Assembly (NCBI GenBank): GCA_029979505.1
Contig: JAPOHH010000003.1
Coordinates: forward strand, 8,635-72,634
Direction of reading: 5' to 3'
Source of the DNA: a bacterium
GTDB taxonomy: Bacteria; Pseudomonadota; Gammaproteobacteria; GCA-002705445; GCA-002716945
Length of the DNA stretch: 64,000 nt
Shown: piece after piece, positions 6,034-64,000 of the stretch
Numbering within the stretch: the stretch's first letter is position 1
How the letters are laid out: each line of letters begins with the position of its first letter
Translations under genes and position numbers: made by a program
Notes under the pieces: model-generated
The model's database searches: none
Told to the model about the DNA's origin: nothing
The model's input: only the letters and a program-made list of their open reading frames with translations

Positions 6034-7440
6034 TCATGACACTGTTTCGTTAATAATATTTTTTATTTCATTGACATCATTATCAGCAATAATCATTCTC
6101 TCTTCCTGTTTTTCGAGCATTCTAACTTTTTCAGTAACAAACGAGTCATCAGAAATAATTTCTGATACCGTTTCTTTGAATTTTGCTGGATGGGCTGTGG
6201 ATAATGTTACAAGTATATCTTCAGATGAAGATTGTTTTCTTCCGCATGCAACCCCTACAGCGGTATGCGGATCTAATGTGATATTATATTTTGAATAATA
6301 TTCTAAAATTATTTCTTTTACTTCATCTTCAGAAGCACTGTCTGATGTAAAGTATCTAGATATATATGTTTGACACTCATTTGTTAATGAAAACGTCCCC
6401 TCCTTTTTCAGATTATTCATAATCTTTTTGACATAACTAGAGTCTTTACAAGAGTCATATATTAATCGTTCAAAATTACTTGAAACTTGTATATCTATGC
6501 TGGGAGATGACGTACTTACAACGCTCTTAATTGTATGCTCACCTGATTTTAAAGCAATATCTAATATATTGTTTTCATTAGTTGCAATATTAAGTTTTTT
6601 AAACTTAAGACCCATTCTTTTTGAAATATATCCTGCTAATATATCACCAAAGTTTCCAGTCGGTACCGAATAAACTATGTTTTCACTATTTTCTATCCTA
6701 CTTGCAGAATAAAAATAATATGTAATTTGACACATAATTCTTGCCCAATTTATTGAGTTGATTGCACCTAGATTATTAGATTTTTTGTAATCATCATCAG
6801 AAAATATTTCTTTTATAATTCTTTGACAATCATCAAAGTTACCTTTTACAGCAATATTCACAACATTATCTGAATTTATAGTGGTCATAAATTTACGTTG
6901 TGTAGAAGAGATTAAATTATAAGGATGCAATATGAATACATTTGATGATGGAATATTTTCAAAGCCATATATGGCTGCAGAGCCAGTATCACCAGATGTT
7001 GCACCAAGAATATTGATATTCTTTTTATCTATTTCTAAATAGTATCCCATAAGTCTTCCAATAAATTGCATCGCAATATCTTTAAAAGCATATGTGGGCC
7101 CATAAAATAATTCTAATAGATATTCATTTTTTGAAATTTTATTTACTGGAGTAATATTCTTATTTGTAAAATCTTTATACGATTCCTCAATAATTTCTCT
7201 AATTTTATCGTCTGAGATTGAATCATCAATATATGGTTTAAAAACATGAAAAGCAATTTCTTGATATGACATACTAGCAAACGAATCAATAATAGTTTGA
7301 TTAATTTTTGGCCAATATTCAGGAAGGTATAGACCGCCATCACTAGCTAGTCCCTCAAATATTACATCTTTGAAGAGTAACTCATCTGCATCGCCACGGG
7401 TGCTTATATATTTAATAAACTTATCTTCAGTCATTATCAC
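6034..7440 (-). CDS. thrC: threonine synthase
   Basis: 468 aa PLP-dependent fold. Overlaps the hom stop by 14 nt, so hom-thrC form an operon. Confidence 0.85.
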   Translation of the reverse strand: MIMTEDKFIKYISTRGDADELLFKDVIFEGLASDGGLYLPEYWPKINQTIIDSFASMSYQEIAFHVFKPYIDDSISDDKIREIIEESYKDFTNKNITPVNKISKNEYLLELFYGPTYAFKDIAMQFIGRLMGYYLEIDKKNINILGATSGDTGSAAIYGFENIPSSNVFILHPYNLISSTQRKFMTTINSDNVVNIAVKGNFDDCQRIIKEIFSDDDYKKSNNLGAINSINWARIMCQITYYFYSASRIENSENIVYSVPTGNFGDILAGYISKRMGLKFKKLNIATNENNILDIALKSGEHTIKSVVSTSSPSIDIQVSSNFERLIYDSCKDSSYVKKIMNNLKKEGTFSLTNECQTYISRYFTSDSASEDEVKEIILEYYSKYNITLDPHTAVGVACGRKQSSSEDILVTLSTAHPAKFKETVSEIISDDSFVTEKVRMLEKQEERMIIADNDVNEIKNIINETVS

Positions 7441-48429: not shown

Positions 48430-48744
48430 ATGGTTTATCATACAATAAATAGAGGTTTTATGAAAAAAATATCCGATTTTATACCTGATAAAGTAATTAA
48501 AAAGAAAGAGAATATTGATGAACTCAACAGTATACTCAAAAGTAATATAGATATTGAGGTTGTAGATAAAATTGACGTGATAAATTTTTCAGATTCCTCA
48601 ATAATCATAGAATGCGAAAATAGCTCTGTTGCATCTATCATCAAGTTTGAAAGAGAGAAATACATACAAATATTCAAAAATTACGGTATGTATAATATTC
48701 AGGATTTAAAAGTAAAAATTAAAATGCCTCAGCAGCCTGAGTGA
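48430..48744 (+). CDS. DUF721-domain protein (DciA-like)
   Basis: 104 aa. [32 protein letters not shown]...IQDLKVKI follows the DUF721 pattern (dgtLlVeVdSsaWaqELsflk..il..lne..G...vkdIrfrv). A DUF721 gene often sits between lpxC and secA in gammaproteobacteria. Start may be at 48460. Confidence 0.45.
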
Positions 48745-49627
48745 ATAGTATAGGAGATTTAGATTCATCTTCTATAATTACTTGTTCCCAAGCACTTTCA
48801 TTATTAACTAATTCTCTTAATAAAAGATTATTAAGATGGTGACCCGATTTATATGCTGAGAATGAGCCTATTAAACTATGTCCGAGCAAATAAAGATCGC
48901 CAATCGCATCAAGAATTTTATGCTTCACAAATTCATCTTTATATCTCAGTCCATCTTCATTAATAATTTTATAGTCATCAATTACAATCGCATTATTTAC
49001 ACTACCACCAAGTGCAAGATTATTTTTTCTTAAATTTTCAATATCTTTAGCAAAACCAAATGTTCTAGCTCTACTTACTTGGCTTAAGTAAGATATTGTT
49101 GAGAAGTCAATAGTTGAATTTTGAGTTTCTCTAGGAAACGAAGGATGATCAAAGTCTATAGTAAAAGAAACCTTAAAGCCATTGTATGGTTCTATTTTAG
49201 CCCATTTATCATTCTGTTTAACTTCAATATCTTTAATTATTTTTATGAATCGTTTGGGATGGTTTTGTTCACATATTCCAGCAGATTGAATTAAAAAAAC
49301 AAAAGGACGTGAACTTCCATCCATTATAGGTACTTCAGGTCCATCAAGCTCTATTACTGCATTATCAATTCCTAAACCTGCTAAAGCAGAAAGTAAATGT
49401 TCAACCGTAGATACTGATGATTCTGCTGAAGATATAGTTGTTGATAATCTAGTATCATGAACATTGTTTAATGAAGCAGATATTGGTGAATCTGAAATAT
49501 CTTTCCTGACAAAGACAATGCCTTTATCTGGTTGACCAGGATTAATTCTTAGATTTATTTTTCTACCAGTATGTAGACCAACTCCAGTTGCTGTAATACT
49601 GCTTGCCAAAGTTCTTTGTTTTAACAT
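48719..49627 (-). CDS. lpxC: UDP-3-O-acyl-N-acetylglucosamine deacetylase
   Basis: 302 aa. Conserved N-terminal [21 protein letters not shown]. Confidence 0.9.
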
Positions 49628-49690
49628 ATCGAAATATTACCAAATAGTTATAAATGTTACAAATATAGATTATTAGACCATATCTAGACG

Positions 49691-50935
49691 TTAAAGTTCT
49701 TTTTGGAAGTAATTAGAGAGCTTTCTGGTGAATTTGTTGATTAAATTAGCAATTTTAGACGGATATTTATTAGATGAAGATAGGTTTTTCAATTTCTTCT
49801 CTCTGTAAAGTAAAAGCCCAACTGCTGTAGAATACCGTGTTTTTCCCCTTAAATCTTCGAGCCCTTTAATACTTTTTGGAGAACCTATTCTCGATGGTGT
49901 CTTAAAAAATGATTCCGCATGATTATCAAGACCATCAAGTTTGGCTCCACCTCCTGTAAATACCAAGCCCGCACGTATCTTACTTGCATAACCGCTGTCA
50001 TGAATTTCTTTTTGTATAGCATCAAATATTTCATTTATCCTGGCTGTGATAATTTGTGACACTATTGTTTTACTAGTTTCAGTATCAGGCTTATCTGAAA
50101 CAGATGGGACAGGAATTTTCAAATTCATGTCTTCATCAGATGACACACATCCATATTGAATTTTTATTTCTTCCGCAGCCTCTAATGATGTACATAATAT
50201 TATTCTGATATCATTTGTTATCATTTGACTACCTATGGGAATAACAGCAGTGTGTTTAATCGTACCCTCAGTAAAAATAGCAACATCAGTCGTGCCACAG
50301 CCTATATCAATTAAACATACACCGAGATCTCTCTCCTCATCTGATAAAACAGCTTCACTGGATGCAACAGGTTGTAGTACAAAATGATCAATCTCTAGAA
50401 GACTATTATTAATACATTTTGTTAAATTTCTTTTTGCTGTAGAAGATGTAGTAATGATATGAACGTTAGCTTCGAGTCTACCTCCAGCCATACCTTTTGG
50501 TTCCCTTATACCTGTTTGACCATCAATGGTATAGTACTGATCTATGACATGGAGTATTTCTTGATCTTTAGGTATTTGGATGTTCTGAGCATTAGCAATT
50601 ACTTTTTCTTTATCCTCTTCTGTCACCTCATCATTCATTATGTTCACAGCACCATTACCGTTATAACTTTGAATGTGATTACCTGCGATACCAGTAGTTA
50701 CAGACTCAATATTGCAACTAGACATGCTGCTTGCTTTTTCTTTAGCACGTCTTACACTTGATACAGTAGCATCAATTTCTGAGATAACACCCTTATTTAG
50801 ACCTGTGCAAGGTTCATTTCCAATGCCTATAATTCTAAGCTCACCCTTATCATCAATATCAGCTACTAGACAGAGCACTTTAGATGTGCCAATGTCAAGA
50901 GCTACAAGAGTATCAGTACTTTTTATAGTATTCAT
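49691..50935 (-). CDS. ftsA: cell division protein FtsA
   Basis: 414 aa actin-like ATPase with phosphate-1 motif ALDIGTSKV. Confidence 0.9.
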   Translation of the reverse strand: MNTIKSTDTLVALDIGTSKVLCLVADIDDKGELRIIGIGNEPCTGLNKGVISEIDATVSSVRRAKEKASSMSSCNIESVTTGIAGNHIQSYNGNGAVNIMNDEVTEEDKEKVIANAQNIQIPKDQEILHVIDQYYTIDGQTGIREPKGMAGGRLEANVHIITTSSTAKRNLTKCINNSLLEIDHFVLQPVASSEAVLSDEERDLGVCLIDIGCGTTDVAIFTEGTIKHTAVIPIGSQMITNDIRIILCTSLEAAEEIKIQYGCVSSDEDMNLKIPVPSVSDKPDTETSKTIVSQIITARINEIFDAIQKEIHDSGYASKIRAGLVFTGGGAKLDGLDNHAESFFKTPSRIGSPKSIKGLEDLRGKTRYSTAVGLLLYREKKLKNLSSSNKYPSKIANLINKFTRKLSNYFQKEL

Positions 50936-50963: not shown

Positions 50964-51608
50964 CTATTTGATAGCAAAACCATTGGAATATCTCATATCA
51001 ATTGAAGTAATTTTTTTTCTATGTACTCTAGATATTTCATCAAACGACAAGATTAATCTTTTTATATTTTTATTAAAGTTAGACCTATCAGAAATAAGTG
51101 TTAGAGAATCAGTATATATTCTGATCAATGAATGAAATATTTCTATCTTATTAATCTTAAGATTAATCATACTTAACTGTTCCTGTGAAAAAACGAATAC
51201 ATTATTAGAAAAAGTGACATCATTATAGTGATCAACTATAATTGGCAGCTTGTACGTATACTCCTTGATATCGATTAAGCTTCCATTGCTAGTCAATATT
51301 TTATTATCGTACTTGGCGATAGGTTTATGATGGAATATTCTAATTTCAAGTGTGGATGGAAATGATTTTTTTATCTCTGCATGTCTAATCTGATTATCAG
51401 ACATTATATTCTTTTGAATAATATCAATATCTGTAAGTAGTAAGTCATTTCCGTATAGCGAACTAATTAACTTATTTAATCTGGCTTCATTATAGTTTTT
51501 TTCAGAAGAAATTATCTTCACTTCATTTATGGGAAAAGAGATGATTCCAGATTTATATGTAATTACTAAAATAAGAGCTACAATTATAGAAACTATTATT
51601 CTGGACAT
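50964..51608 (-). CDS. ftsQ: cell division protein FtsQ
   Basis: 214 aa. N-terminal TM followed by a POTRA-like region. Positioned between ddl and ftsA. Confidence 0.7.
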   Translation of the reverse strand: MSRIIVSIIVALILVITYKSGIISFPINEVKIISSEKNYNEARLNKLISSLYGNDLLLTDIDIIQKNIMSDNQIRHAEIKKSFPSTLEIRIFHHKPIAKYDNKILTSNGSLIDIKEYTYKLPIIVDHYNDVTFSNNVFVFSQEQLSMINLKINKIEIFHSLIRIYTDSLTLISDRSNFNKNIKRLILSFDEISRVHRKKITSIDMRYSNGFAIK

Positions 51609-52507
51609 AAATCTAAAATATTTAGTATCAACTGATAATAATCTATACCGTCTTTTATTGCAGCTTTTGGCACAAGACTGTGGTCAGTCATTCCTGGTAT
51701 CGTATTCAACTCTAATAAAATAATCTCATCAGCCTTTATAAAGAAGTCTACTCTACCCCATGTATCACAACCAATAATATTAAATGCATTTAAAATAGTA
51801 TTATTTATCGAAGCTGCTAACTCATTGTTTATTTTTGGAAAAGTAAATTCTGTAAGATTAGACGCATATTTAGCATCGTAATCATAAAAGTCATTGCCTG
51901 GCTTAATTTTAATTATAGGAAGTAATTGATTATGAAGAATTGCAGCCGTATATTCATCAGCAGAAATCTTTTCTTCAATTATAAATTGACGCTTTTTATC
52001 ATAATTATTAAGGAAATAACTAAATTCATTTGAATTAGATATTAAAAATATATTATTGCTTGAACCTGAACATGTATCTTTTATAAAAAAATGATCACCA
52101 TATTCTTTATAACAATAATTGTAATCTTGTGATTCATATATTTCATATTTTGGAATTATAAATCCATTCTGTTCCCATATTATTTTGGTATCGTATTTAT
52201 TAAATGATATTTTTGATGATTTCGCATCTGAACCACAATACTCAACTGATAGTTTATCGAGATATTTTTGAACTGTCCCATCTTCACCGCCCTCGCCATG
52301 AATTAGATTAAAAACCAAATCTATAGAGTTATCCCTAACTACTTTTTTTAAGTTTTCAAATGAATCTACCGACATGTCATAGAAGATAACATCATGTCCA
52401 TTTTGCTTGAGACAATTATAAACATCATTAGAGCTTTTAAGAGATATTAATCTTTCATTTGACCATCCTCCACCTAGAATACAAATTTTTGGTTCTCTAT
52501 ACCTCAT
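51596..52507 (-). CDS. ddl: D-alanine--D-alanine ligase
   Basis: 303 aa ATP-grasp enzyme. Confidence 0.85.
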   Translation of the reverse strand: MRYREPKICILGGGWSNERLISLKSSNDVYNCLKQNGHDVIFYDMSVDSFENLKKVVRDNSIDLVFNLIHGEGGEDGTVQKYLDKLSVEYCGSDAKSSKISFNKYDTKIIWEQNGFIIPKYEIYESQDYNYCYKEYGDHFFIKDTCSGSSNNIFLISNSNEFSYFLNNYDKKRQFIIEEKISADEYTAAILHNQLLPIIKIKPGNDFYDYDAKYASNLTEFTFPKINNELAASINNTILNAFNIIGCDTWGRVDFFIKADEIILLELNTIPGMTDHSLVPKAAIKDGIDYYQLILNILDLCPE

Positions 52508-53337
52508 TTTACTAGAATAACCTCTTCTTGAAGATGAATGTTATATTTAGAAAAAACTCTCTTTTTCACAATTTTCATAAGCTGTAGAAATTCATTATAT
52601 GTACCAGAACCATCATTAATGAAATAATTAGAATGTTTTCTTGAAATATAAATTCCTCCTACTCTCATTCCTTTTAGTTCAGCTCCTTCTATTAATTTTG
52701 CTGCATAATCATCTTTAGGATTTTTAAAAATACATCCACATGAGAGCTGATTTATAGGTTGTGTATTTTTTCGGATGATATTTAGTTTGCTAAGCAAATT
52801 CTTGTTAAATTCTTTTACCTGATTATATAACGTAACTGAAATGATACTAGAATTTTTATCAATGTTAGATGTTCTGTAACTATAATTTAAGTCCTTATTT
52901 TTCATTTCATAAATTTTACCCTTATTATTTACTAGCTCTATACTGTGTACGTGTTGAAGAAGCTCGTCATTGAATGCTCCAGCATTCATAAATATTGCCC
53001 CTCCCATGGAGCCAGGTATACCATAAAGAAACTCAAAACCTGATATTTTATTTTTATATAAATATCTAGATGCTTTATTACATGAAATATTACTTGAACA
53101 GTAAATGAAATTAGTATCATGTGTGATAAATCTTTTCATTCTTTTTAAACTAATTATTGTTCCATCATAATAATCAGTAATAAAACAAATATTAGATCCA
53201 TTTCCAATGTACATATGCTTATGAGATTTATTTATTTTTAACAAATCATCAATTGATGAGGGACAAATAAATTCCTTGCATGTGCCACCAAGACCAATTG
53301 TTGTTATATTTTTGAGAGGATAATTATTTTGAATCAT
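52504..53337 (-). CDS. murB: UDP-N-acetylenolpyruvoylglucosamine reductase
   Basis: 277 aa, short-form MurB. FAD-binding GLGGTCKEF motif. Confidence 0.8.
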   Translation of the reverse strand: MIQNNYPLKNITTIGLGGTCKEFICPSSIDDLLKINKSHKHMYIGNGSNICFITDYYDGTIISLKRMKRFITHDTNFIYCSSNISCNKASRYLYKNKISGFEFLYGIPGSMGGAIFMNAGAFNDELLQHVHSIELVNNKGKIYEMKNKDLNYSYRTSNIDKNSSIISVTLYNQVKEFNKNLLSKLNIIRKNTQPINQLSCGCIFKNPKDDYAAKLIEGAELKGMRVGGIYISRKHSNYFINDGSGTYNEFLQLMKIVKKRVFSKYNIHLQEEVILVK

Positions 53338-54712
53338 TATGAAGTAAATTTATAATATTTCTTATATCGCCTGCTCCCTGTAGGAGTAAAACAGTATCTT
53401 TATCAATGAGTTGCTCAATTGTTTTTTTTACACTTCGTAATGATTTAATATAAATCTTACTGTTAACTTTTATTTTATTATATAAGAACTCCGAGTCATA
53501 TGATGTTCTTTTTTCCCCTGCAGAATATGTAGGCAAAAGTATAACTTTGTCTGTAACATTCAATACTTTAACCATCTCTCTCCAGGAGGATTTTGTTCTT
53601 GAATAGCGATGTGGTTGAAATACAATTAAGATTTTTTTGTTAGGATGAATGTCTTTGATGGTAACTATAGTTGATTTAATTTCAGAGGGATGATGTCCAT
53701 AATCATCAATTGTAAGTACATTATTATTATTAATAGAAATATCTTTATGTACATCAAACCTTCTAGAAACTCCATGAAAAGTTACAATAGACTTAATAAC
53801 CCTTGATAGTTTAATACCTATATGAATACAGACAGCTATTGCTGTTAATATATTATAAATATTATGCTTACCTAGAAGCCTGGTTGATACTAAATATGTC
53901 TTTCGATTGTAATGAATTGTAAATTTCATCATATGAGCACTACATAATATGTCAGTTGCATATAAATCATTATTTTTCTTAAATCCAAAAGTAAAAATAT
54001 TTCGATTAATATTTTTAGTGAGATGTAAAGAATTTTTATCATCACCATTGATGAAAACTTTTCCATAGAAAGGAATTGATTTTATAAATTCACGCATGCA
54101 GGAAATTAAATTTCTGAAAGAATTATTATAATTCTCTAGATGTTCTGCATCCAGATTAGTTATCGCAACAAGATGAGGTTTTAACTTTGTAAAATCTGGG
54201 TTACTCTCATCAGTTTCGGTTATTAGATAACTACTATTTCCTAGCTTGACATGAGGATCGTCTGTTTTGAGCATACCTCCAATCAAATATGTTGGATCCA
54301 AATGGTTTTTATGGAGTATATGACTCAATAAACTTGTGGTAGTTGTTTTCCCATGTGAACCAGTAATACTAATGCCATATTTTAATCTCATTAATTCAGA
54401 TAATATCTCCATACGAGAGAGTATAGTCATGCTATTAGCTCTAGCAAATTTCATTTCGATATTATTTTTTTTAATCGCATTAGAAAAAATTATAATATCG
54501 TTATTATTAATATTTTTTGGGTTATGGCCTATATGTACCTTTATCTTTAGCTTTCGCAATCTTTTTACAGACAAGGTATCTTTGATATCTGAGCCATGTA
54601 CTGAGAATCCTAAGTTATATAACAATTCTGCTATACCCATCATTCCAGCACCACCAATTCCAATTAAGTAAAATGATTTATTTTTAAGATGCTGTGTTAT
54701 GGAGTTTTTCAT
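53324..54712 (-). CDS. murC: UDP-N-acetylmuramate--L-alanine ligase
   Basis: 462 aa. GIGGAGMMGIAE and GSHGKTTT motifs. Confidence 0.9.
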   Translation of the reverse strand: MKNSITQHLKNKSFYLIGIGGAGMMGIAELLYNLGFSVHGSDIKDTLSVKRLRKLKIKVHIGHNPKNINNNDIIIFSNAIKKNNIEMKFARANSMTILSRMEILSELMRLKYGISITGSHGKTTTTSLLSHILHKNHLDPTYLIGGMLKTDDPHVKLGNSSYLITETDESNPDFTKLKPHLVAITNLDAEHLENYNNSFRNLISCMREFIKSIPFYGKVFINGDDKNSLHLTKNINRNIFTFGFKKNNDLYATDILCSAHMMKFTIHYNRKTYLVSTRLLGKHNIYNILTAIAVCIHIGIKLSRVIKSIVTFHGVSRRFDVHKDISINNNNVLTIDDYGHHPSEIKSTIVTIKDIHPNKKILIVFQPHRYSRTKSSWREMVKVLNVTDKVILLPTYSAGEKRTSYDSEFLYNKIKVNSKIYIKSLRSVKKTIEQLIDKDTVLLLQGAGDIRNIINLLHNDSK

Positions 54713-55778
54713 GCAATTCCGGAATATTTTGTAAGATTATATCACTAGAATCATTTGGAAAAAGAGATTTAACATTATTTGCCATTTTATATAATTCATT
54801 CTTATTTAATAAAAGGTGTTTGATAGTAATATTCAAATTTTCTTTAAATTTATTATCCTCTTGTATTATCACTGCCGCGTGATTTTCATGCAAATACCTT
54901 GCATTGATTAGTTGATGATTATCAGTTGCGTATAGGTAAGGAATTAAAATAGATGCTCTACCAGAACTTGATATCTCACTCAATGTCATTGATCCCGACC
55001 GTGAAATGATTAAATCAGACCATTCATAGAGAATTTCCATCTCATATGAAAACTCAATTACATCAACTTGGACTCCATATTTTTTATATTGTTCCTCAAG
55101 TTTATTTTTATTATTCATACCAGAAATATGCTTTATATTAATTGAATCGGAAAAGTGCAAAAAACATTCAGGGATATTTTCATTGAAAAATTTAGCTCCT
55201 TGACTTCCTCCAAAAATCAGGATGTTTATCTTTTGATTTTTTTCTTTATACTTTTGGTCAGGACCTGTTATGTTTTTAAATTTTTTTTTAAGTGGATTGC
55301 CAGATAATATAACTTTTGACTTTTTTTGAAATGTATTTGGAAATGTTTCAAATGTCCTCTTTGTAATTAAATTATTAATTTTATTCGCTGAACCAGCAAT
55401 TGAATTCGATTCATGAGCATACACTGGCAAGCGATATAAAAATCCAGCTAAACTTACAGAAGAACTTACATAACCTCCGAATCCTAATATGAAAATAGGT
55501 TTATTAGAAATTATAATTTTAAGACTTTGGAATATAGATTTCATAAAATTTAGTAGTCCTTTAATTTTATTTATGAAGTTTTTTCCTCTAATACCTGTTG
55601 ATGTTATATGTATTAATTTAATTTTTTTATTTTTTATTAATTTATTTTCGATACCATTCTTTGTTCCAATCCAAATAACATCGTAACCTTTTATTAATAA
55701 TAATTCAGAAATATTCAAAGCAGGTATTACATGACCGCCAGTTCCACTTGATGCTATTATTATTTTTTTATTGATCAT
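54684..55778 (-). CDS. murG: UDP-GlcNAc:undecaprenyl-PP-MurNAc-pentapeptide GlcNAc transferase
   Basis: 364 aa GT28 enzyme with SGTGGHVIPAL motif. Confidence 0.85.
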   Translation of the reverse strand: MINKKIIIASSGTGGHVIPALNISELLLIKGYDVIWIGTKNGIENKLIKNKKIKLIHITSTGIRGKNFINKIKGLLNFMKSIFQSLKIIISNKPIFILGFGGYVSSSVSLAGFLYRLPVYAHESNSIAGSANKINNLITKRTFETFPNTFQKKSKVILSGNPLKKKFKNITGPDQKYKEKNQKINILIFGGSQGAKFFNENIPECFLHFSDSINIKHISGMNNKNKLEEQYKKYGVQVDVIEFSYEMEILYEWSDLIISRSGSMTLSEISSSGRASILIPYLYATDNHQLINARYLHENHAAVIIQEDNKFKENLNITIKHLLLNKNELYKMANNVKSLFPNDSSDIILQNIPELHEKLHNTAS

Positions 55779-56926
55779 ATGCTTCTATGAACTGCTTGAC
55801 TATGTGTTTGTTTCCTTTCAATTTGTATTCTAATTAGAATACCAATATACGTGAACATAAGAAGAAGGTTTGTACCACCATAGCTTATAAAAGGGAGTCC
55901 CATCCCTTTCGTAGGGAATAAACCAATATTGACTAACACATGTATTATGGTTTGTATCATCATTAATAGTATGATACTTAAAACTAGGTTTGATGAAAAC
56001 TCTGAAATCTTACGAGTACTACCATAGAAAATGAACATTCGCCAAAAAAGAACGACATATAGCAATAAAATAAAGATAAGGAAAATAAAACCAAGTTCTT
56101 CTCCAATGATAGCTAATATAAAATCATTGTACTGTTCAGGTAAATAAAATAATTTCTGCATGCTTGAACCCAAGCCTTGTCCAAAATAGCCTCCAGAAGA
56201 TAATGCTATTTGTGATGCAATAATTTGGTAACCACTTCCTTGTGGATCATTCCATGGGTTTATGAATGCAAGAAATCTTTGAACTCTATAAGGATATAAG
56301 ATAATTAGCAAAATAATTGGGATAATTGCAATTAAAGATACTCTCAATAAATGAGATAGTAGAACATTTGATATAAATGAATATATTAAAAATGTTGTGA
56401 ATAGTAATATCATACTTCCGAAATCTCTTTGTAAAACAATAATAAACATTAGTGTTGATGCAAAGACGAAGATCTTAAAAAAATCTTTATTGAAGTTATT
56501 TCGTACAATATATCCAGACAACCAAATAAAGAACAATAATCTTGATACTTCTGATACTTGTAAAGTAAAAAATCCAAGATTAATCCATCTGGTTGCCCCA
56601 TTTATAGTAACACCTACTCCAGGTATGTGAACTAGAAGGGATAGAAGCAAAGATAATAATAAAAAGAATTGGCTGTAATCATAGTAAAACTTTATTTTAA
56701 TATGCGTAACTATATAAAGAACAAATAAACCTAAAATTATAAATAATAATTGTTTCTTAAAAAAGAATAACGGATTTGAGAATTTAGTTGCAGCAAAATC
56801 TACAGTGGATGAAGTTACCATAACTAGTCCGATTATTATAAGACTTGTAACGCAAGCTAAGAAAAGTGAATCGAGACCTCTATTATCAAAAAAATCGAAA
56901 GTATTTTTAAACTTTTTTATTAGCAT
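55775..56926 (-). CDS. ftsW: peptidoglycan glycosyltransferase FtsW
   Basis: 383 aa, predicted 10-TM SEDS protein. Confidence 0.85.
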   Translation of the reverse strand: MLIKKFKNTFDFFDNRGLDSLFLACVTSLIIIGLVMVTSSTVDFAATKFSNPLFFFKKQLLFIILGLFVLYIVTHIKIKFYYDYSQFFLLLSLLLSLLVHIPGVGVTINGATRWINLGFFTLQVSEVSRLLFFIWLSGYIVRNNFNKDFFKIFVFASTLMFIIVLQRDFGSMILLFTTFLIYSFISNVLLSHLLRVSLIAIIPIILLIILYPYRVQRFLAFINPWNDPQGSGYQIIASQIALSSGGYFGQGLGSSMQKLFYLPEQYNDFILAIIGEELGFIFLIFILLLYVVLFWRMFIFYGSTRKISEFSSNLVLSIILLMMIQTIIHVLVNIGLFPTKGMGLPFISYGGTNLLLMFTYIGILIRIQIERKQTHSQAVHRSI

Positions 56927-58193
56927 AATAATTTACAAGATTTTTAAAGTGATCACCTCTTTGCTCAAAGTTTTTATAATGAGAGAAACTAGATGTGCCT
57001 GGCGAAAAAAGAATGGTTGTTTTTTCTCTAAAATCAGAAAATATATATGAAACAACTTCTTTTAGATTATTGAAAAATATTGTTTCAATATCTGGTATTA
57101 TTGCATTGTATATATCTTGTCTATTGTCACCAAATAATATAAGTAACTTTACTTTGTTATTAATTATTCCGGATAGCACGGAATAAGAAATATTTTTTTT
57201 ATCACCTCCCATAATCAAAGTTATGTTGTTTGAAATTGATTCAAGAGCATTTAGTGTTGAATTAGCATTAGTTGATTTTGAGTCATTAATAAATTTTGTA
57301 TTTTTGTAGCTATAAAAGCTCTCTAGCCTATGTGGTAATATTGAGCGCTTTGAAAAACCAATTAATGAGTCACTTAATTTAATACCTATTATTTTTAAAA
57401 CTGCTAAACAAGCACATAGGTTTAGGGCTTCATGTTTACCATTAATTTTGAAAATTCTTCCATTGAAGTTTATAGAATTATAATCCATTAATGAAATGCC
57501 ATTTATAATTTCTCCATTAATAAGAAAATTATTATTATGAACATTAAATGTATAGGATTTTTTTGGAGCTCCTATATCAGCATTAATAATTGAATTAATG
57601 GCGCCATTGAATATCTTAAGCTTGATGTCTAAGTACTCTTGCAAGGAGTTATGCCTGTCTAGATGGTCTTCAGAGATATTTAGTACTATTGAAATAAATG
57701 AATTTAAGTTTTGTATGTATTCTAACTGATAGCTTGAAAGCTCGATTATTACGTAACTGTAATCTTCCTCAAGAGCTTTAAAGAGTGAAACACCATTATT
57801 TCCGCATGCAATTGCTTTTTGATTATTATTATTTAAGATATCTGCAAGTAGATTCACTGTTGATGTTTTTCCATTAGTACCAGTAACACAAATATATTTA
57901 GCTTTTAATTGATGTTGGAGAAGCTCTACATCTGTTATAAATTTACAATCAAGATCAAGTAGTTGTTCCACATAATAATTTTGTTTTTTAATACCTGGAC
58001 TTATTACAATATAGTCGAAACTTTTGATATTTATCTTGCCAGATGTGGTCGAGATATTAACATTATCAATGTGCAAAATATCTTCAGTATTTATCGCTTG
58101 ATAAGTAATTGATTTTTTGTCAAAAAATACTCTACAGTTATTATAAGTTACGCCTTTACCAAGTATAAGAAACGACGACTTAGATAAGTTCAT
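56907..58193 (-). CDS. murD: UDP-N-acetylmuramoylalanine--D-glutamate ligase
   Basis: The ILGKGVTY N-motif places the likely start at 58193, forming an ATGA overlap with the mraY stop. The ORF-track start at 58247 would overlap mraY by 58 nt. Confidence 0.85.
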   Translation of the reverse strand: MNLSKSSFLILGKGVTYNNCRVFFDKKSITYQAINTEDILHIDNVNISTTSGKINIKSFDYIVISPGIKKQNYYVEQLLDLDCKFITDVELLQHQLKAKYICVTGTNGKTSTVNLLADILNNNNQKAIACGNNGVSLFKALEEDYSYVIIELSSYQLEYIQNLNSFISIVLNISEDHLDRHNSLQEYLDIKLKIFNGAINSIINADIGAPKKSYTFNVHNNNFLINGEIINGISLMDYNSINFNGRIFKINGKHEALNLCACLAVLKIIGIKLSDSLIGFSKRSILPHRLESFYSYKNTKFINDSKSTNANSTLNALESISNNITLIMGGDKKNISYSVLSGIINNKVKLLILFGDNRQDIYNAIIPDIETIFFNNLKEVVSYIFSDFREKTTILFSPGTSSFSHYKNFEQRGDHFKNLVNYYANKKV

Positions 58194-59275
58194 CTTATTT
58201 TTAAAGTAGATAATGCTATCAACACAAGTATGAATGTTACTATCCAAAATCTCATGATTATTTTAGGTTCAGATAATCCTGATAGCTCATAATGGTGATG
58301 TAAAGGTGCCATTTTAAATATTCTTTTCCCATTTCTCAGCTTAAATGAGAGAACTTGTAAAATGACAGATATGACTTCAGCTATAAAGATACCGCTCATA
58401 ATTGCAAATGCTAATTCTTGTTTTAGAATTATTGCTAACAACCCCAGAGAACTACCAAGAGATAATGATCCGCAGTCACCCATAAATATTTCAGCTGGGT
58501 AAGAATTAAACCATAAGAATCCTAAACCTGCACCCACCAATGATGCTGCAAATATTGCTATTTCTCCTGACCCTTCAATGTATGGTATAAGCAAATATTC
58601 AGAAATAATCACATTCCCATGCACGTATGAAAAAATAACAAATGCTGATGCGATCAAAATACAAGGCAATATAGCAAGTCCATCCAAACCATCTGTTAAA
58701 TTTACTGCATTCGACGAACCAACTAATATGAATATTGCCCAAGGTATAAAGAGGATTCCTAAATAAAAACTATTGTCTTTCATAAATGGAACAACAGATT
58801 CAATTGCACCCGTTTGCATATATGTATATAAAAATATTGTGATTAATGAGGCAATAACTATTTGAAAAAAAAGTTTTAATCTTCCTTTAATGCCATCACT
58901 ATTTTTTTTTATTAATTTTTTATAATCATCATAGAAACCTATTAGGCCAAATCCTAGAATCCCAAATAATAATACTAATATATAGTTATTGTTTAAATCT
59001 GACCACAATAATGTTGATATCACTACGGAAAATATAATTATTACGCCGCCCATTGTCGGAGTAGTATTTTTATCATCTAAATGACTTTTTGGTCCGTCTT
59101 CTCTTATAGATTGGTAAAATTGTTTATTTCTTAAATATGAGATAATAGCTGGGCCTAAAAGAAGTGAGATTACTAAAGCTGTGAGTGCACCCATAACTAT
59201 CCTAGTAGTTAAATATAAAAATGCATTAAACCCAGTATTATATTGAGTAAGATATTCAAAAAAAGCTAAAAGCAT
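58190..59275 (-). CDS. mraY: phospho-N-acetylmuramoyl-pentapeptide transferase
   Basis: 361 aa membrane transferase. Confidence 0.9.
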   Translation of the reverse strand: MLLAFFEYLTQYNTGFNAFLYLTTRIVMGALTALVISLLLGPAIISYLRNKQFYQSIREDGPKSHLDDKNTTPTMGGVIIIFSVVISTLLWSDLNNNYILVLLFGILGFGLIGFYDDYKKLIKKNSDGIKGRLKLFFQIVIASLITIFLYTYMQTGAIESVVPFMKDNSFYLGILFIPWAIFILVGSSNAVNLTDGLDGLAILPCILIASAFVIFSYVHGNVIISEYLLIPYIEGSGEIAIFAASLVGAGLGFLWFNSYPAEIFMGDCGSLSLGSSLGLLAIILKQELAFAIMSGIFIAEVISVILQVLSFKLRNGKRIFKMAPLHHHYELSGLSEPKIIMRFWIVTFILVLIALSTLKIR

Positions 59276-59277
59276 AG

Positions 59278-60609
59278 TTATTTAAGTTCCTGGGCAATAA
59301 TGTCAAAATTCATGAAACGAGATGCTTTTATCAAAATAGCAGATTGACTATTAGATGTATTTTTTATGTATTCAATTAGTTTATTCATATCATTTGAAGT
59401 ATAGCAATTCTTGCCAAATATTGATTTAGCATCTTTCATATATTTTCCCATATAAAATAAATACTTTATTCCTAATTCTTTTGATAATTTAAATATCATT
59501 AAATGACTTTCATATGATTTGTCTCCAAGCTCACCCATGTCTCCCATTACGAATAACTTTTCACGATCAATTTGTGAAAATTGGTTTAGAGCAGCTTTCA
59601 TAGATTCTGGATTTGCATTATAAGAATCATCAAAAACTATTGATTTATTTTTCGCAATAAATCTATAAAATCTACCCTTCACTCCTGCGAATGCTCCTAA
59701 GCCTTCAATTACATCACTTATACTTGCGCCAGATTCCATAGATATTGCAATACTAAACAAAATATTTATAGGTAATACATTCTGGATAGCTTTTTTATCT
59801 ACTTCAAAAGTATTTCCATAAGTAGATACCTCATAAGTATAATCAGAATATCGTCTCAGAACATAATCTGCATTACCGTGCAAAGAAATGGTTACAACAT
59901 TTTTATTAATATTAATATTTTTCCACTGTTGATAGTATTTGTCATCTAGATTTAAGATTACTGTTGTTGTGTTTGAATGTGAAAAAATCTCTTCTTTAGT
60001 TTTGATTAAATTGTCCATATTTATAAATGATTCCATATGTGCTTCAGATACATTTAATAGCGCTGTTAAATTTGGCTCAGATATTGACGTTAAATATTTG
60101 ATATCACCTAACTTGCTAGCTCCATGTTCATATATACATTTTTTTGTTTCTTTTGAAGCATTAAGTATAGATAGTGGCAAACCTATTTGATTATTATAAT
60201 TTCCTATAGTCGTACTCGTTTCAAAAGATGTTTTTAATATAGATTCACATAGTTGCGTAACTGTTGTTTTACCATTAGTGCCAGTTATAGCAATAGTATG
60301 GGGAGAGCCTATCTTGTTTTTATACTTTCTGGCTATTATCCCTAGTGCAAGAATTGTATCGTCAACACTAATAGTCGTTACCCTTCGATCATTTATAACA
60401 TGTGATTTATTGTAAACTATACACTTTGCTCCATTATCGATAGCATTTGTAATGAAGTCATGACCGTTATATGTTTGTCCAGGTAGTGCTAAAAATAAAT
60501 CTCCATCTGTAACGTCTCTGCTATCAATAACTATATTATTAATTGAGGTATCATCACCGGTATATGTGCTGGAAAGATAATTTGCTACATCTGATATTTT
60601 AAGATTCAT
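59278..60609 (-). CDS. murF: UDP-MurNAc-tripeptide--D-Ala-D-Ala ligase
   Basis: 443 aa Mur ligase with GTNGKTT motif. Confidence 0.85.
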   Translation of the reverse strand: MNLKISDVANYLSSTYTGDDTSINNIVIDSRDVTDGDLFLALPGQTYNGHDFITNAIDNGAKCIVYNKSHVINDRRVTTISVDDTILALGIIARKYKNKIGSPHTIAITGTNGKTTVTQLCESILKTSFETSTTIGNYNNQIGLPLSILNASKETKKCIYEHGASKLGDIKYLTSISEPNLTALLNVSEAHMESFINMDNLIKTKEEIFSHSNTTTVILNLDDKYYQQWKNININKNVVTISLHGNADYVLRRYSDYTYEVSTYGNTFEVDKKAIQNVLPINILFSIAISMESGASISDVIEGLGAFAGVKGRFYRFIAKNKSIVFDDSYNANPESMKAALNQFSQIDREKLFVMGDMGELGDKSYESHLMIFKLSKELGIKYLFYMGKYMKDAKSIFGKNCYTSNDMNKLIEYIKNTSNSQSAILIKASRFMNFDIIAQELK

Positions 60610-62062
60610 GTTTTTTAATTAGTAAATTTAAATAATTGATATCATTATGTCTTATTTTTTTATTTTTCTTCAAGATATAATCTTCATTACCTTTTCCTAA
60701 TATGAAATTTAAGCTTTCTTTATTTGATTTCTTAAATAAATATTTAATCGCTTTTTTACGTGATTCTATAACTATATAGTTGTTGTGATTAAATCCTGAT
60801 TTAATATCATCGAGTATCGAATAGAAATTTTCATCTCTTGAATTATCTTCAGTGATTATTGATAAAGAAGAATTACTTTCCACAGCTTTTGCTATATTTT
60901 TTCTTTTAGATTTATCTCTATCGCCCCCGCACCCAAACAGTGTTGTGATATTAGAATTTGAATGAAAATCATTATATATATCCTGAAAGGATTGTATTGT
61001 GTGAGCATAGTCAATTATAAATCTACCTCTTTCTTTTGTGTTAACTACTTGTCTTCTTCCGGGTAATGGTTTTAGATTATCTATTGCTTTTTGTATAGTA
61101 TTATTTTTGAAATCTTCAAGATGAAGAAGTGTGCAAATATTTAATAATGAATATATATTAAAACTAATAAAGTTATTCTTAGGAAGCTTAATGATTTTAT
61201 TTCTTATATATATATTTCCTATTTTATCGTCATAAGTTACTAAGCAATTATTTTTATTTTTAATATCATTAGATATAAGAATTTTTCTTGTCTTATCTTG
61301 TAATGATATTTCATTCATTAATATGTCAGAGTCTTTATTTAAAATAGTACATTTAGACTGTCGTATGATAGAAATCTTTGCTCTTGCATAGTTTTTAATA
61401 CTCTTATGATAATCCAAATGATCACTATAGATATTTGTTATAAATGAATAGTCAAAACATATCCCTTTAAGCCTCCCCTGGTCTAATCCTTGTGAAGAGC
61501 ATTCAATAATTACATAATCATATTTTTTTGATAAAAAATTAAAATAGTTTTTGTAGATAACATCAATTGGTGGCGTCGTATAATCATTTTTTTTCAATGA
61601 TGGATATAGACCTACCCCCTCACTAGATATAACACCTACATTTTTATTTAAATTTGTGAGTGATTCTGCTAGCAATAAAACTGTTGATGTTTTTCCGTTA
61701 GTTCCAGTTACACCGATAGTCTTAGTTTTAGAATTTAAGATTTTCAAATTATTTTGATATATCTTATAAAAACAATTTTCAAGATTTCTCTGAACAAAAA
61801 AAGGTATGGTACTATTTACTTGTTTTCTGGTAAATTGAAAAGCGGATATGTATCCATATGCACCATTTTTTATTGCGTCTTTAATATTTATGAGATTATT
61901 TTCCCGCCTTGTATCTAAAGAAATAAAAATTTGTCCAGAAACTATTTTCCTTGAGTCAATTGAAAACTTATCATAAATATTTTTAGATATCCTTCCATTT
62001 AATTTTATGAACTTCTCTAAAAGATTCAGATTAATAGTTTCTTGTGACATAGTTTTGATCAT
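60599..62062 (-). CDS. murE: UDP-MurNAc-L-Ala-D-Glu--2,6-diaminopimelate ligase
   Basis: 487 aa Mur ligase with GVTGTNGKTS motif. Confidence 0.85.
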   Translation of the reverse strand: MIKTMSQETINLNLLEKFIKLNGRISKNIYDKFSIDSRKIVSGQIFISLDTRRENNLINIKDAIKNGAYGYISAFQFTRKQVNSTIPFFVQRNLENCFYKIYQNNLKILNSKTKTIGVTGTNGKTSTVLLLAESLTNLNKNVGVISSEGVGLYPSLKKNDYTTPPIDVIYKNYFNFLSKKYDYVIIECSSQGLDQGRLKGICFDYSFITNIYSDHLDYHKSIKNYARAKISIIRQSKCTILNKDSDILMNEISLQDKTRKILISNDIKNKNNCLVTYDDKIGNIYIRNKIIKLPKNNFISFNIYSLLNICTLLHLEDFKNNTIQKAIDNLKPLPGRRQVVNTKERGRFIIDYAHTIQSFQDIYNDFHSNSNITTLFGCGGDRDKSKRKNIAKAVESNSSLSIITEDNSRDENFYSILDDIKSGFNHNNYIVIESRKKAIKYLFKKSNKESLNFILGKGNEDYILKKNKKIRHNDINYLNLLIKKHES

Positions 62063-63692
62063 TTAATATTCTCATGGAGTGTTGCATAAACTCACTAAAT
62101 ATTGGAGCAGCGTGTACACCTCCAGATCCCTCTCGATTTTGCGGGTTTCTGACAATTACTGCAGCAACATACTTTGGTTCTGGGTCGCCCAATATGCCAA
62201 TAAAAAGAGCATTATGTCTATTTTTAACGTATTCGCCATCAATCAGCTGTCTGACAGTACCTGTCTTACCATATACCGTATAACCTTGAACAGCAGCTTT
62301 TCTCCCAGTACCATCTTTGGAATGAACAACTTCTTTCATCATAGTTAGAACTTTTTTTGATTTTTTATAATCAAGAATACTTTCTTTATTATTTTTATTT
62401 GAATTATTTAAATAATTTATGCTAACTCTCTCTCCATAATTAGCCAATGTAGTATATGCGCTAGCTAGATGCATCAGAGACATTGAAAGTCCATAACCAT
62501 ATCCAAGACTCATATGACTTGATTCTGATAAATTAGATGCGATAGGTAGAGTACCATTCTTTGATCCCGGTAAATTCAAAAATAGTGATTGTCCAAATCC
62601 AAATTTATTCAATCCATCTATAAGTTGTTTTTTTGATAATTTACTTGATATTTTAGCTGCTCCAATATTACTTGATAGGCGAATTATATCTGTTGGATTA
62701 ATTGATCCTAAATACTTCCAATCTTTAATTTCCTTATCTTCCAGTTTTATCACACCAGGAGCAGTATCAATAATTGTGTATTCATCAATAATTTTATGAT
62801 TCAGAGCTGTGTATATTATGAGCGGTTTTATTGTGGAACCTGGTTCTATCAAATCATATACAGCTCTATTTTTGATATTTTTGCCTTTAAATTGACTTCT
62901 TTTTTCAGGATTAAAAGAAGGATAATTAACCATAGATAATATATCTCCTGTATTTGATTCAATCAAAATAATTGAACCACTCTCTGCATTGAATTTATGG
63001 ATATATTTTCTTAGAATTTCATACCCAATAATTTGCACTCTTTTGTCAATTGTTAGAGAAATATCTTTTCCAGATTGAGATTTTTTTATTATCTCGATTG
63101 TTTCAATAGGTCGACCAATATTGTCTTGTTTTACTTTTTTTAAACCCCTAACAGGTGAGAGTATATCATTATTTATTAATTCTATTCCCTCTTGCCCTTT
63201 ATCATCTATGTCTGTAAATCCAATGACATTTGAAAATGATTCGCCACCAAGATATGATCTCTTATTTTCATTAATAAAATAGATGTAAGGATTTTTTAAC
63301 TTTTTAACTTTATTATAGACTTGTTTAGATACATGTCTTTTTACATACAATTCTTTTTTATTTTTATTTTTTAGTATTATAGAATTTATTTTTTTTTCAG
63401 ATATATTCAATTCTCTCGCAAGCATTGTTATTGATTTATCATAATTTCTATATAATTTACTTGGATTAATACATAGTGTTTTTGATGGTAAGGACATGGC
63501 CAAAATATCATTATTTCTATCATAGATACTACCTCTTTGTGCTGATATCTTTACCAAATGTATTTGTCTTTTTTTTGCCTCATCCAAAATATTTTCTTTG
63601 CAAACTTCTCCATTAAAATAAAAACAATCTGTTGCTTTTATTTGAATGAAGTAAAGTCTTAATAGAATAATAAAAAAAACAAAAAAGGCCAC
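62031..63692 (-). CDS. ftsI: peptidoglycan D,D-transpeptidase FtsI (PBP3)
   Basis: 553 aa. N-terminal TM, a PBP dimerisation domain and a transpeptidase with STIKP and SxN/KTG motifs. Confidence 0.85.
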   Translation of the reverse strand: MAFFVFFIILLRLYFIQIKATDCFYFNGEVCKENILDEAKKRQIHLVKISAQRGSIYDRNNDILAMSLPSKTLCINPSKLYRNYDKSITMLARELNISEKKINSIILKNKNKKELYVKRHVSKQVYNKVKKLKNPYIYFINENKRSYLGGESFSNVIGFTDIDDKGQEGIELINNDILSPVRGLKKVKQDNIGRPIETIEIIKKSQSGKDISLTIDKRVQIIGYEILRKYIHKFNAESGSIILIESNTGDILSMVNYPSFNPEKRSQFKGKNIKNRAVYDLIEPGSTIKPLIIYTALNHKIIDEYTIIDTAPGVIKLEDKEIKDWKYLGSINPTDIIRLSSNIGAAKISSKLSKKQLIDGLNKFGFGQSLFLNLPGSKNGTLPIASNLSESSHMSLGYGYGLSMSLMHLASAYTTLANYGERVSINYLNNSNKNNKESILDYKKSKKVLTMMKEVVHSKDGTGRKAAVQGYTVYGKTGTVRQLIDGEYVKNRHNALFIGILGDPEPKYVAAVIVRNPQNREGSGGVHAAPIFSEFMQHSMRILNDQNYVTRNY

Positions 63693-63738
63693 TGCTATGA
63701 ATAACAGTAGCCTTAGCTTGTCATTTCTTTTTGTATTA

Positions 63739-64000
63739 TTAATCAGCTTGCTGTCTTAAAAAAGCTGGTATATCAATAGACGTTTGTTCTTCAGGTTGAA
63801 TGCTATTAACATTCGGTGCTGCGTCTATGTTAGATACAATATTATTATTTACTGTTTGTCCCAGGTTAGTATGCTCGTTTTGATTACTAACAGTATCAGG
63901 ATTAACTTCTTGTGTAGCATTATTTTGAGCAAATCCTGTTGCAATTATAGTTACACGTAAGTCGCCAATATTATCATCTTCTTTTATGCAACCTGTAATT
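63739..64000 (-). CDS. ftsZ: cell division protein FtsZ, C-terminal fragment (gene continues beyond window end)
   Basis: Hand translation of the minus strand gives ...GDLRVTIIATGF-(N/Q-rich linker)-SIQPEEQTSIDIPAFLRQQAD, then tandem stops TAA TAA. IRVTVIATGF and the terminal DIPAFLRKQAD peptide are diagnostic of FtsZ. It is absent from the ORF track because its start lies outside the window. Confidence 0.85.
   Translation of the reverse strand, partial: ITGCIKEDDNIGDLRVTIIATGFAQNNATQEVNPDTVSNQNEHTNLGQTVNNNIVSNIDAAPNVNSIQPEEQTSIDIPAFLRQQAD

Follow-up and report, generated by a model that had tools for sequence, protein, structure and literature searches.

Relocation of ftsZ to a position between ftsL and ftsI in the division and cell wall cluster of a lineage of uncultured marine Gammaproteobacteria

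The DNA analyzed here is a stretch of 64,000 nucleotides from a bacterium of the gammaproteobacterial order GCA-002705445, family GCA-002716945 (assembly GCA_029979505.1, contig JAPOHH010000003.1, positions 8,635 to 72,634 of the forward strand). This whole stretch, with a GC content of 30.6%, is referred to as the window. The minus strand at its far end carries a cluster of division and cell wall genes (dcw cluster) in which the cell division gene ftsZ lies directly upstream of ftsI. The features at this junction are as follows.

63742 to 63999, minus strand: 3′ part of ftsZ, the last 86 codons (translation; identity to the C terminus of the 379-residue FtsZ on contig L001, introduced below)
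63736 to 63741, minus strand: tandem stop codons TAA TAA of ftsZ (sequence)
63741 to 63746, minus strand: CTG (63746 to 63744) and ATT (63743 to 63741), candidate ftsI initiation codons overlapping the end of ftsZ (start-codon table of 38 sequences)
63685 to 63714, minus strand: stem-loop with a 13-bp stem and a 4-nucleotide loop, AAGGCTACTGTTA-TTCA-TAGCAGTGGCCTT (folding, covariation)
63672 to 63684, minus strand: T-rich run, TTTTGTTTTTTTT, directly 3′ of the stem and also coding for Phe and Val of the FtsI membrane helix (sequence)
62031 to 63743, minus strand: ftsI, the division transpeptidase, a class B penicillin-binding protein (NCBIfam FtsI/PBP2 models; Pfam PBP_dimer and Transpeptidase)

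Translation of the last 262 bases of the window, read on the minus strand from position 63999, yields 86 sense codons, ITGCIKEDDNIGDLRVTIIATGF...SIDIPAFLRQQAD, followed by a stop codon at 63741 to 63739 and a second one at 63738 to 63736. The segment takes in the last part of the C-terminal domain, then the variable linker, and finally DIPAFLRQQAD, the conserved C-terminal peptide; the remaining 293 codons lie past the window edge. No NCBIfam model matched the 86-residue fragment alone, which consists mostly of variable linker. The called ftsI open reading frame (ORF; 62031 to 63692) starts at a GTG at position 63692, leaving a gap of 46 bp to the ftsZ stop. A preliminary description made from the window alone had recognized an FtsZ C terminus ending 46 bp before the ftsI start, and the translation, the ORF list, and the identity to the FtsZ of contig L001 all bear this out.

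The exact FtsI protein of the window is present on seven public contigs, six of which were compared; each came from a separate sample and was at least 99.9% identical to the window. The longest, L001, matches the window at 99.9% over 11,970 bp and extends 9.7 kb further upstream, with the gene order mraZ, a 64-residue J-domain ORF, rsmH, an 89-residue ORF (ftsL), a 379-residue ORF (ftsZ), and ftsI. The extension past position 64000 that the preliminary description had called for thus supplies the full ftsZ together with mraZ, rsmH, and ftsL upstream of it. The C terminus of the 379-residue protein is identical to the 86 residues encoded in the window. It scores 162 bits against the Pfam Tubulin/FtsZ GTPase domain (PF00091) and 99.8 bits against FtsZ_C (PF12327), and its residues 9 to 379 align with residues 8 to 383 of solved FtsZ chains (E = 6e-116), the top matches over this range being FtsZ chains of 383 and 385 residues, followed by a chain of 394 residues. 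The nucleotide-binding motif MGGGTGTGAAP and the T7 loop NVDFADV are present and invariant among 17 sequences of the clade, as is throughout the clade the C-terminal peptide, which is of the D-I-P-x-F-L-R type (DIPAFLRQQAD; ...SIDIPAFLRQQAD and then the stop in the window). A peptide of this type is the binding site for FtsA and ZipA. The ORF at the window edge therefore belongs to a complete, proteobacterial-type, and strongly conserved ftsZ.

The 89-residue ORF directly upstream of ftsZ, just past coordinate 64000, matches Pfam FtsL (PF04999) with 31.3 bits against a threshold of 22.9, the match covering residues 6 to 85. Its N terminus is hydrophobic (LILIFLITTSAFGVIFI), and in all loci it adjoins the 3′ end of rsmH. 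The single FtsL sequence gave no match among solved structures, whereas a profile of 14 clade sequences had Pseudomonas FtsL (8bh1) as its best, weak match (E = 0.21), collinear over residues 5 to 79 versus 17 to 91. Two statements of the preliminary description, that ftsL is missing and that ftsZ stands at the head of the block, are consequently wrong: ftsL is immediately upstream of ftsZ, and ftsZ sits between ftsL and ftsI with mraZ, rsmH, and ftsL still ahead of it.

On its 3′ side, ftsZ is followed by the co-oriented genes ftsI-murE-murF-mraY-murD-ftsW-murG-murC-murB-ddl-ftsQ-ftsA-lpxC-secA. Apart from ftsZ, the cluster from mraZ to ftsA is complete, on one strand, and in standard order relative to that of Escherichia coli. 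The features following ftsI in the window are listed below.

60599 to 62062, minus strand: murE (NCBIfam murE, 289 bits, cutoff 257)
59278 to 60609, minus strand: murF (Pfam Mur_ligase, Mur_ligase_M, and Mur_ligase_C on the identical L001 gene)
58190 to 59275, minus strand: mraY (Pfam Glycos_transf_4)
56907 to 58247, minus strand: murD (Pfam Mur_ligase_M; position in the cluster)
55775 to 56926, minus strand: ftsW (Pfam FTSW_RODA_SPOVE)
54684 to 55778, minus strand: murG (Pfam Glyco_transf_28 and its C-terminal domain)
53324 to 54712, minus strand: murC (Pfam Mur ligase domains)
52504 to 53337, minus strand: murB (NCBIfam murB, 195 bits, cutoff 144.5)
51596 to 52507, minus strand: ddl (NCBIfam D-Ala-D-Ala ligase, 277 bits)
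50964 to 51608, minus strand: ftsQ (Pfam POTRA_1, 35 bits; weak NCBIfam FtsQ match)
49691 to 50935, minus strand: ftsA (NCBIfam ftsA, 423 bits)
49628 to 49690, minus strand: ftsA-lpxC spacer of 63 bp, the vacated canonical ftsZ position (sequence)
48719 to 49627, minus strand: lpxC (NCBIfam lpxC, 381 bits)

Since ftsA and lpxC are only 63 bp apart, ftsZ is missing from its usual place. The same is seen in a relative whose FtsA is 79% identical, where ftsA is directly followed by lpxC on a long-read contig of 1.04 Mb. Between lpxC and secA, a 104-residue ORF on the opposite strand (48430 to 48744, plus strand) shows a weak DciA-like match (20.6 bits, threshold 24).

The distribution of this gene order was analyzed by a species-level scan with one genome per species, in which an FtsZ alignment served as the query, 80 loci were returned, and neighboring genes were typed by tblastn with the window proteins. 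The order mraZ-J-rsmH-ftsL-ftsZ-ftsI-murE-murF, with J denoting the J-domain gene, was found in all 12 species-representative genomes with an FtsZ at least 66% identical, and ftsA-ftsZ, usually followed by lpxC, in all 68 with an FtsZ at most 55% identical. Metagenomes gave the same partition, with the new order in 28 of 28 loci at an FtsZ identity of at least 66% and the canonical order in 48 of 48 informative loci at no more than 57%. When both scans are pooled, ftsA-ftsZ(-lpxC) is kept in 116 of 116 informative loci at or below 57% identity. The comparison with relatives that had been proposed for the window hence places the new order in every close relative surveyed, and in all 40 of these loci ftsZ (1,140 bp) separates ftsL from ftsI. 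The relocation of ftsZ suspected from the window holds, as a complete ftsZ lies directly upstream of ftsI, the ftsA-lpxC site is empty, and the order is clade-wide; that the relocation as such is real can be regarded as practically certain. Because the order recurs across genomes and metagenomes and the long-read relative likewise has ftsA next to lpxC, an accident in a single strain, a misassembly, and a pseudogene remnant are all excluded. Specifically, an explanation of the window by an extra copy, a remnant, or a chimera (a fragment of a pseudogene, a paralogue accompanying a canonical copy elsewhere, or a misjoin) could draw on the fact that the window alone shows 86 codons. It is extremely improbable given that the ORF has its full length and carries every catalytic motif, that the canonical site is empty both in the window and in the relative, that each species-representative genome returned a single FtsZ locus, and that the ftsL-ftsZ-ftsI junction is identical in four contigs from four samples and kept in 40 further loci (44 in all), which include single-cell genomes, metagenome-assembled genomes, and long-read contigs. 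The scenario of a short C-terminal remnant, which the preliminary description had named as the finding that would overturn its reading, is ruled out by the full-length gene.

The arrangement is fixed clade-wide in small-genome, uncultured marine Gammaproteobacteria. FtsZ surpasses all other proteins of the locus in conservation, with 69% identity at the deepest split compared with 35 to 62% for its neighbors. The relocation must be ancient, because it is shared across a split into two subclades between which FtsI is only about 48% identical; MurE is 35 to 40% identical between them. The closest species representative, BS301-5m-G69 from the Black Sea (FtsZ 94% identical), was assigned by its authors to the Gammaproteobacteria, o__GCA-002705445, f__GCA-002716945, with 31% GC and an estimated genome of 1.27 Mb; for this genome, an assignment to SAR86 itself is thereby rejected. 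The order GCA-002705445, a sister order of SAR86, has been described as a basal lineage of common origin with SAR86 and PIVX01 and as a dissimilatory methylotroph. Methanofuran/tetrahydromethanopterin-type genes (4HFCP_synth, DUF447, DUF6513, a flavoprotein, and a nucleotidyl transferase) located 2 to 6 kb upstream of mraZ (L001, 858 to 4638) fit the reported methylotrophy. Close FtsA homologues (P0155, P0233, and P0238) are encoded on single contigs of 1.01 to 1.07 Mb, which suggests that complete genomes of the lineage measure only about 1 Mb. The top-scoring FtsZ representative, P0241, is 840 residues long and contains two stretches resembling FtsZ; it is a tandem or fused FtsZ or else an artifact of gene calling. 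The best AT-rich representative in an exhaustive FtsZ search, P0242, was considered as a route to the gene order of SAR86 and dropped, its relatives being Methylococcales.

In formal terms the change is a block interchange, from ftsL-[ftsI...ftsA]-ftsZ-lpxC to ftsL-ftsZ-[ftsI...ftsA]-lpxC. The same gene order would result if horizontal transfer had brought a foreign ftsZ into the ftsL-ftsI junction and the native copy behind ftsA had later been deleted, and with a ftsL-ftsZ gap of 10 to 25 nucleotides such an insertion would have been precise. Several observations make this origin very unlikely. The closest relatives of the clade FtsZ outside the clade are ordinary Gammaproteobacteria with 50 to 55% identity, which argues for vertical descent; the core of the clade FtsZ (residues 9 to 297) is 61% identical to the 378-residue representative P0243, which we take to be the E. 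coli FtsZ, and its C-terminal peptide is of the same type. In addition, the GC content and codon style of ftsZ match those of the surrounding genes, and neither mobile-element genes nor flanking repeats were seen. The most likely origin would be a tandem duplication spanning ftsI...ftsZ, after which the redundant copies were lost reciprocally; along this route the cell is at no point deprived of an essential gene.

The junctions on both sides of the relocated gene have distinctive features. Upstream, the ftsL stop overlaps a near-perfect Shine-Dalgarno sequence of ftsZ (one subclade has TAGGAGGAACACC-ATG, the other CGGAGGTG), and either AGGAGG or GGAGGTG is conserved before ftsZ in all loci; the ftsL-ftsZ spacer measures 10 to 25 nucleotides. 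The calculated duplex energy with the anti-Shine-Dalgarno sequence is −10.2 kcal/mol, compared with values between 0 and −6.5 for 20 further starts, and by this measure ftsZ has the strongest predicted ribosome-binding site of the cluster, a new observation.

Downstream, the called ftsI start truncates the protein because the in-frame translation upstream of the GTG at 63692 is conserved. The conserved N terminus reaches to approximately 63743 and includes a K-(L/W)-R motif and a hydrophobic helix, matching the SWRF motif before the membrane helix of E. coli FtsI. Among 38 distinct sequences, 34 have no ATG, GTG, or TTG upstream of the (W/L)R motif, and in roughly half of them the following 14 codons lack one as well. 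In 37 of the 38, the open ftsI frame extends upstream into the final codons of ftsZ and overlaps the ftsZ stop, and the ftsZ-ftsI spacer varies in 3-nucleotide steps. The sole start-like codons always present upstream of the FtsI N-terminal motif are CTG and/or ATT, located over the final Ala-Asp-stop of ftsZ, with no Shine-Dalgarno sequence (−1.4 kcal/mol). In the metagenomic relative L108 (2976 to 3080), ftsI lies in the +2 frame relative to ftsZ instead of +1; its ORF opens just past the ftsZ stop, and the only available starts are ATT, ATC, or ATA, with an ATT a few nucleotides after the stop. We infer inefficient initiation of FtsI at a near-cognate codon, in the simplest case by ribosomes coming straight from termination on ftsZ. 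A programmed +1 frameshift that would fuse FtsZ to FtsI was rejected, since GAU-UAA contains no slippery or shift-prone motif, most sequences have tandem stops, and the frame in L108 differs.

The third feature is the stem-loop, separated from the ftsZ stop codon (63741 to 63739) by 24 intervening bases and located within the part of ftsI encoding the juxtamembrane and transmembrane segment. It occurs 24 to 33 nucleotides 3′ of the ftsZ stop in essentially every clade locus. In the window, its stem (5 GC pairs of 13) followed by TTTTGTTTTTTTT is the strongest terminator-like site in the 20-kb cluster and resembles an intrinsic terminator, and the hairpin folds better than all 200 shuffled sequences (z = −3.8). 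For comparison across the clade, 38 distinct sequences were taken at fixed offsets from the ftsZ stop codon; RNAalifold predicted this helix alone, and 8 of its 10 pairs showed compensatory changes. A 16-pair version of the hairpin was 85% paired, compared with 35 to 56% in shifted registers, and none of 500 shuffles scored as high. The stem sequence varies by subclade (GGCTGCTG... versus GGAGACAAT...), and the peptide encoded at the stem shifts from LRLLLF..AVAFF to WRQYF..IVSI while the pairing persists. As stem and peptide both change between subclades with the pairing kept, the comparison points to selection on RNA or single-strand structure rather than on the protein or a DNA operator. 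Consistently, a palindromic operator for a DNA-binding protein appears unlikely, since the sequence differs by subclade with complementarity kept and the loop ranges from 4 to 12 nucleotides. A dispersed repeat or mobile-element end was rejected, as the hairpin is unique in the 64-kb window and has no partner upstream of ftsZ, where the spacer is 10 to 25 nucleotides. An Rfam search over the mraZ-ftsI region returned RNase P RNA only, the hairpin matching no family, and a search of viral contigs with an FtsI alignment for outgroup ftsL-ftsI junctions found none.

The region in front of mraZ completes the locus. At L001 positions ~6915 to 6965, immediately before or overlapping the mraZ start, TGG/GTG repeats occur with a 10-nucleotide period (AGTGT..AATGG..TTTGT..AGTGG..AATGG), and the same region is found in 20 related loci. 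A conserved "catatagtgttgata" block accompanies the repeats in this conserved, promoter-like region, and the repeats are probably boxes to which MraZ binds in the cluster promoter. An RNase P RNA gene (class A, 266 bits; L001, 6472 to 6804, plus strand) immediately precedes mraZ and shares its strand. Between mraZ and rsmH, a stand-alone J-domain mini-protein of 63 to 66 residues is encoded clade-wide (L001, 7419 to 7613; Pfam DnaJ, 57.5 bits), with the HPD motif in 30 of 30 related loci covering the site; a J-domain gene within the dcw operon is foreign to the canonical cluster.

Taken together, these features suggest how the new arrangement may work. With ftsZ now approximately 1.9 kb from the mraZ promoter region instead of approximately 16 kb, it would belong to a promoter-proximal segment behind the candidate MraZ boxes and would be translated very efficiently from the strongest Shine-Dalgarno sequence of the cluster. 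The stem-loop, terminator-like with its U-run in the species of the window, may end or stabilize the mraZ...ftsZ part of the transcript. Lacking a Shine-Dalgarno sequence and a conserved canonical start, ftsI would yield little product, probably through ribosomes that finish ftsZ and reinitiate at ATT or CTG. The net output would be much FtsZ, little FtsI, and little of the downstream mur and fts products. A relocation coupled to such a step-down in expression is the reading that we favor and consider reasonably probable. A stricter version, in which ftsI has no independent initiation and is made only via reinitiation at ATT/CTG, the hairpin acts as a brake and transcript boundary, and the move was selected for the FtsZ:FtsI ratio in a regulator-poor genome, is put forward only tentatively and seems to us rather unlikely in full.

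Several points weigh against an expression step-down, and some of them would equally fit a neutral rearrangement, i.e., a chance move with an older or by-product hairpin, a rare ftsI start codon, and no regulatory meaning. A U-run (at least 5 T in 8 nucleotides) follows the stem in no more than 25 of the 38 sequences, is pronounced only in the lineage of the window, and appears not to be conserved; T-richness is expected anyway in AT-rich DNA coding for a membrane helix. In E. coli K-12, whose cluster is canonical, ftsI (L168, 1958 to 1980, codons 16 to 23) has a hairpin of 9 bp, ATGCCAACT-TTATC-AGTTGGCGT, whose end falls on the SWR motif, close to where the clade hairpin begins. Because a hairpin stands beside the same motif there, the one at the ftsI 5′ end may predate the move and be wider than the clade; about one-third of the canonical outgroups likewise have a strong hairpin after ftsZ. 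The constant CTG/ATT is weak evidence for initiation, since the codons preferred by FtsZ for its final Ala-Asp-stop partly force it. Efficient termination at the hairpin would require read-through or internal promoters for 12 essential downstream genes, and a promoter scan gave no information in DNA so rich in AT. Termination, processing, and reinitiation are predictions from sequence. As to the relocation itself, a second, divergent ftsZ elsewhere in these genomes is conceivable. Finally, drift fixes rearrangements in streamlined genomes. A neutral origin nevertheless appears doubtful, if well within the possible, in view of three observations: the fixation of the arrangement over a deep divergence (FtsI about 48%, MurE 35 to 40% identical), the stem pairing kept through many compensatory changes despite a changed peptide, and the near-perfect Shine-Dalgarno sequence on ftsZ alone.

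What is new here is one internal transposition in a standard cluster of standard genes, with an unusual junction; no new component or pathway is involved. The new observations at the junction are the Shine-Dalgarno sequence of ftsZ, the covarying hairpin in ftsI, and an ftsI without a conserved canonical start. Full-text literature searches gave no account of an ftsZ placed between ftsL and ftsI, nor anything in that connection for this lineage or SAR86; an earlier mention is possible. In practical terms, automatic gene calling will give ftsI in these genomes a wrong start or a truncated product, and where ftsZ transcripts are used as an index of marine bacterial growth, their transcription context differs in this lineage.

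Individual elements of the junction have counterparts in other systems. Intercistronic stem-loops set unequal expression within the Rhodobacter puf operon, at the REP sequences of E. coli malEFG, and in pap. As in these operons, a stable hairpin here follows a gene needed in quantity and precedes genes needed sparingly; unlike in them, it lies inside the coding sequence of the next gene, in the FtsI membrane anchor, rather than between genes, and its presumed effect on the RNA is read from sequence. Coupling through overlapping stop and start codons is known from trpB-trpA, and weak non-AUG initiation from the AUU start of infC. The ftsI frame similarly overlaps the ftsZ stop (GAT-TAA read as ATT-AA), with no Shine-Dalgarno sequence and mostly only ATT/CTG at hand; in contrast to trpB-trpA, the ftsZ/ftsI overlap has no canonical start codon, and its initiation codon is a candidate only.

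Among examples of extreme conservation of gene order, the dcw cluster is a standard one, and the adjacency of ftsA and ftsZ at its 3′ end is thought to be part of setting the FtsZ:FtsA ratio and ftsZ transcription. Compared with the E. coli cluster (mraZ-rsmH-ftsL-ftsI-murE-murF-mraY-murD-ftsW-murG-murC-ddlB-ftsQ-ftsA-ftsZ-lpxC), strand and relative order are the same here except for one gene, with mraZ first and lpxC and secA last; murB stands between murC and ddl, as in many nonenteric Proteobacteria. The differences from the canonical cluster are that ftsL no longer abuts ftsI, that ftsA is approximately 13 kb downstream of ftsZ instead of adjacent, and that the J-domain gene lies between mraZ and rsmH and a strong stem-loop inside the cluster; in E. 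coli, to our knowledge, the first terminator of the cluster is described only after ftsZ/lpxC. The present lineage is marine, abundant, and free-living and keeps the whole cluster, yet has moved ftsZ promoter-proximal, which indicates that dcw order is not obligatory. It may also offer a natural experiment in which ratios of division proteins would be set via position, ribosome-binding strength, RNA structure, and stop/start overlap instead of internal promoters. Other departures from the canonical cluster involve fragmentation, as in Cyanobacteria, or gene loss, as in Chlamydiae and Planctomycetes. A parallel in gene order is the reduced dcw operon of Mollicutes, mraZ-mraW-ftsA-ftsZ, e.g., in Mycoplasma genitalium (PMC12957436). 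As there, ftsZ in the present lineage is close to mraZ and rsmH, in a promoter-proximal operon that would be under MraZ control. In Mollicutes, however, this closeness results from the loss of cell wall genes and ftsA still precedes ftsZ, whereas here ftsZ has jumped over 12 retained genes and parted from ftsA.

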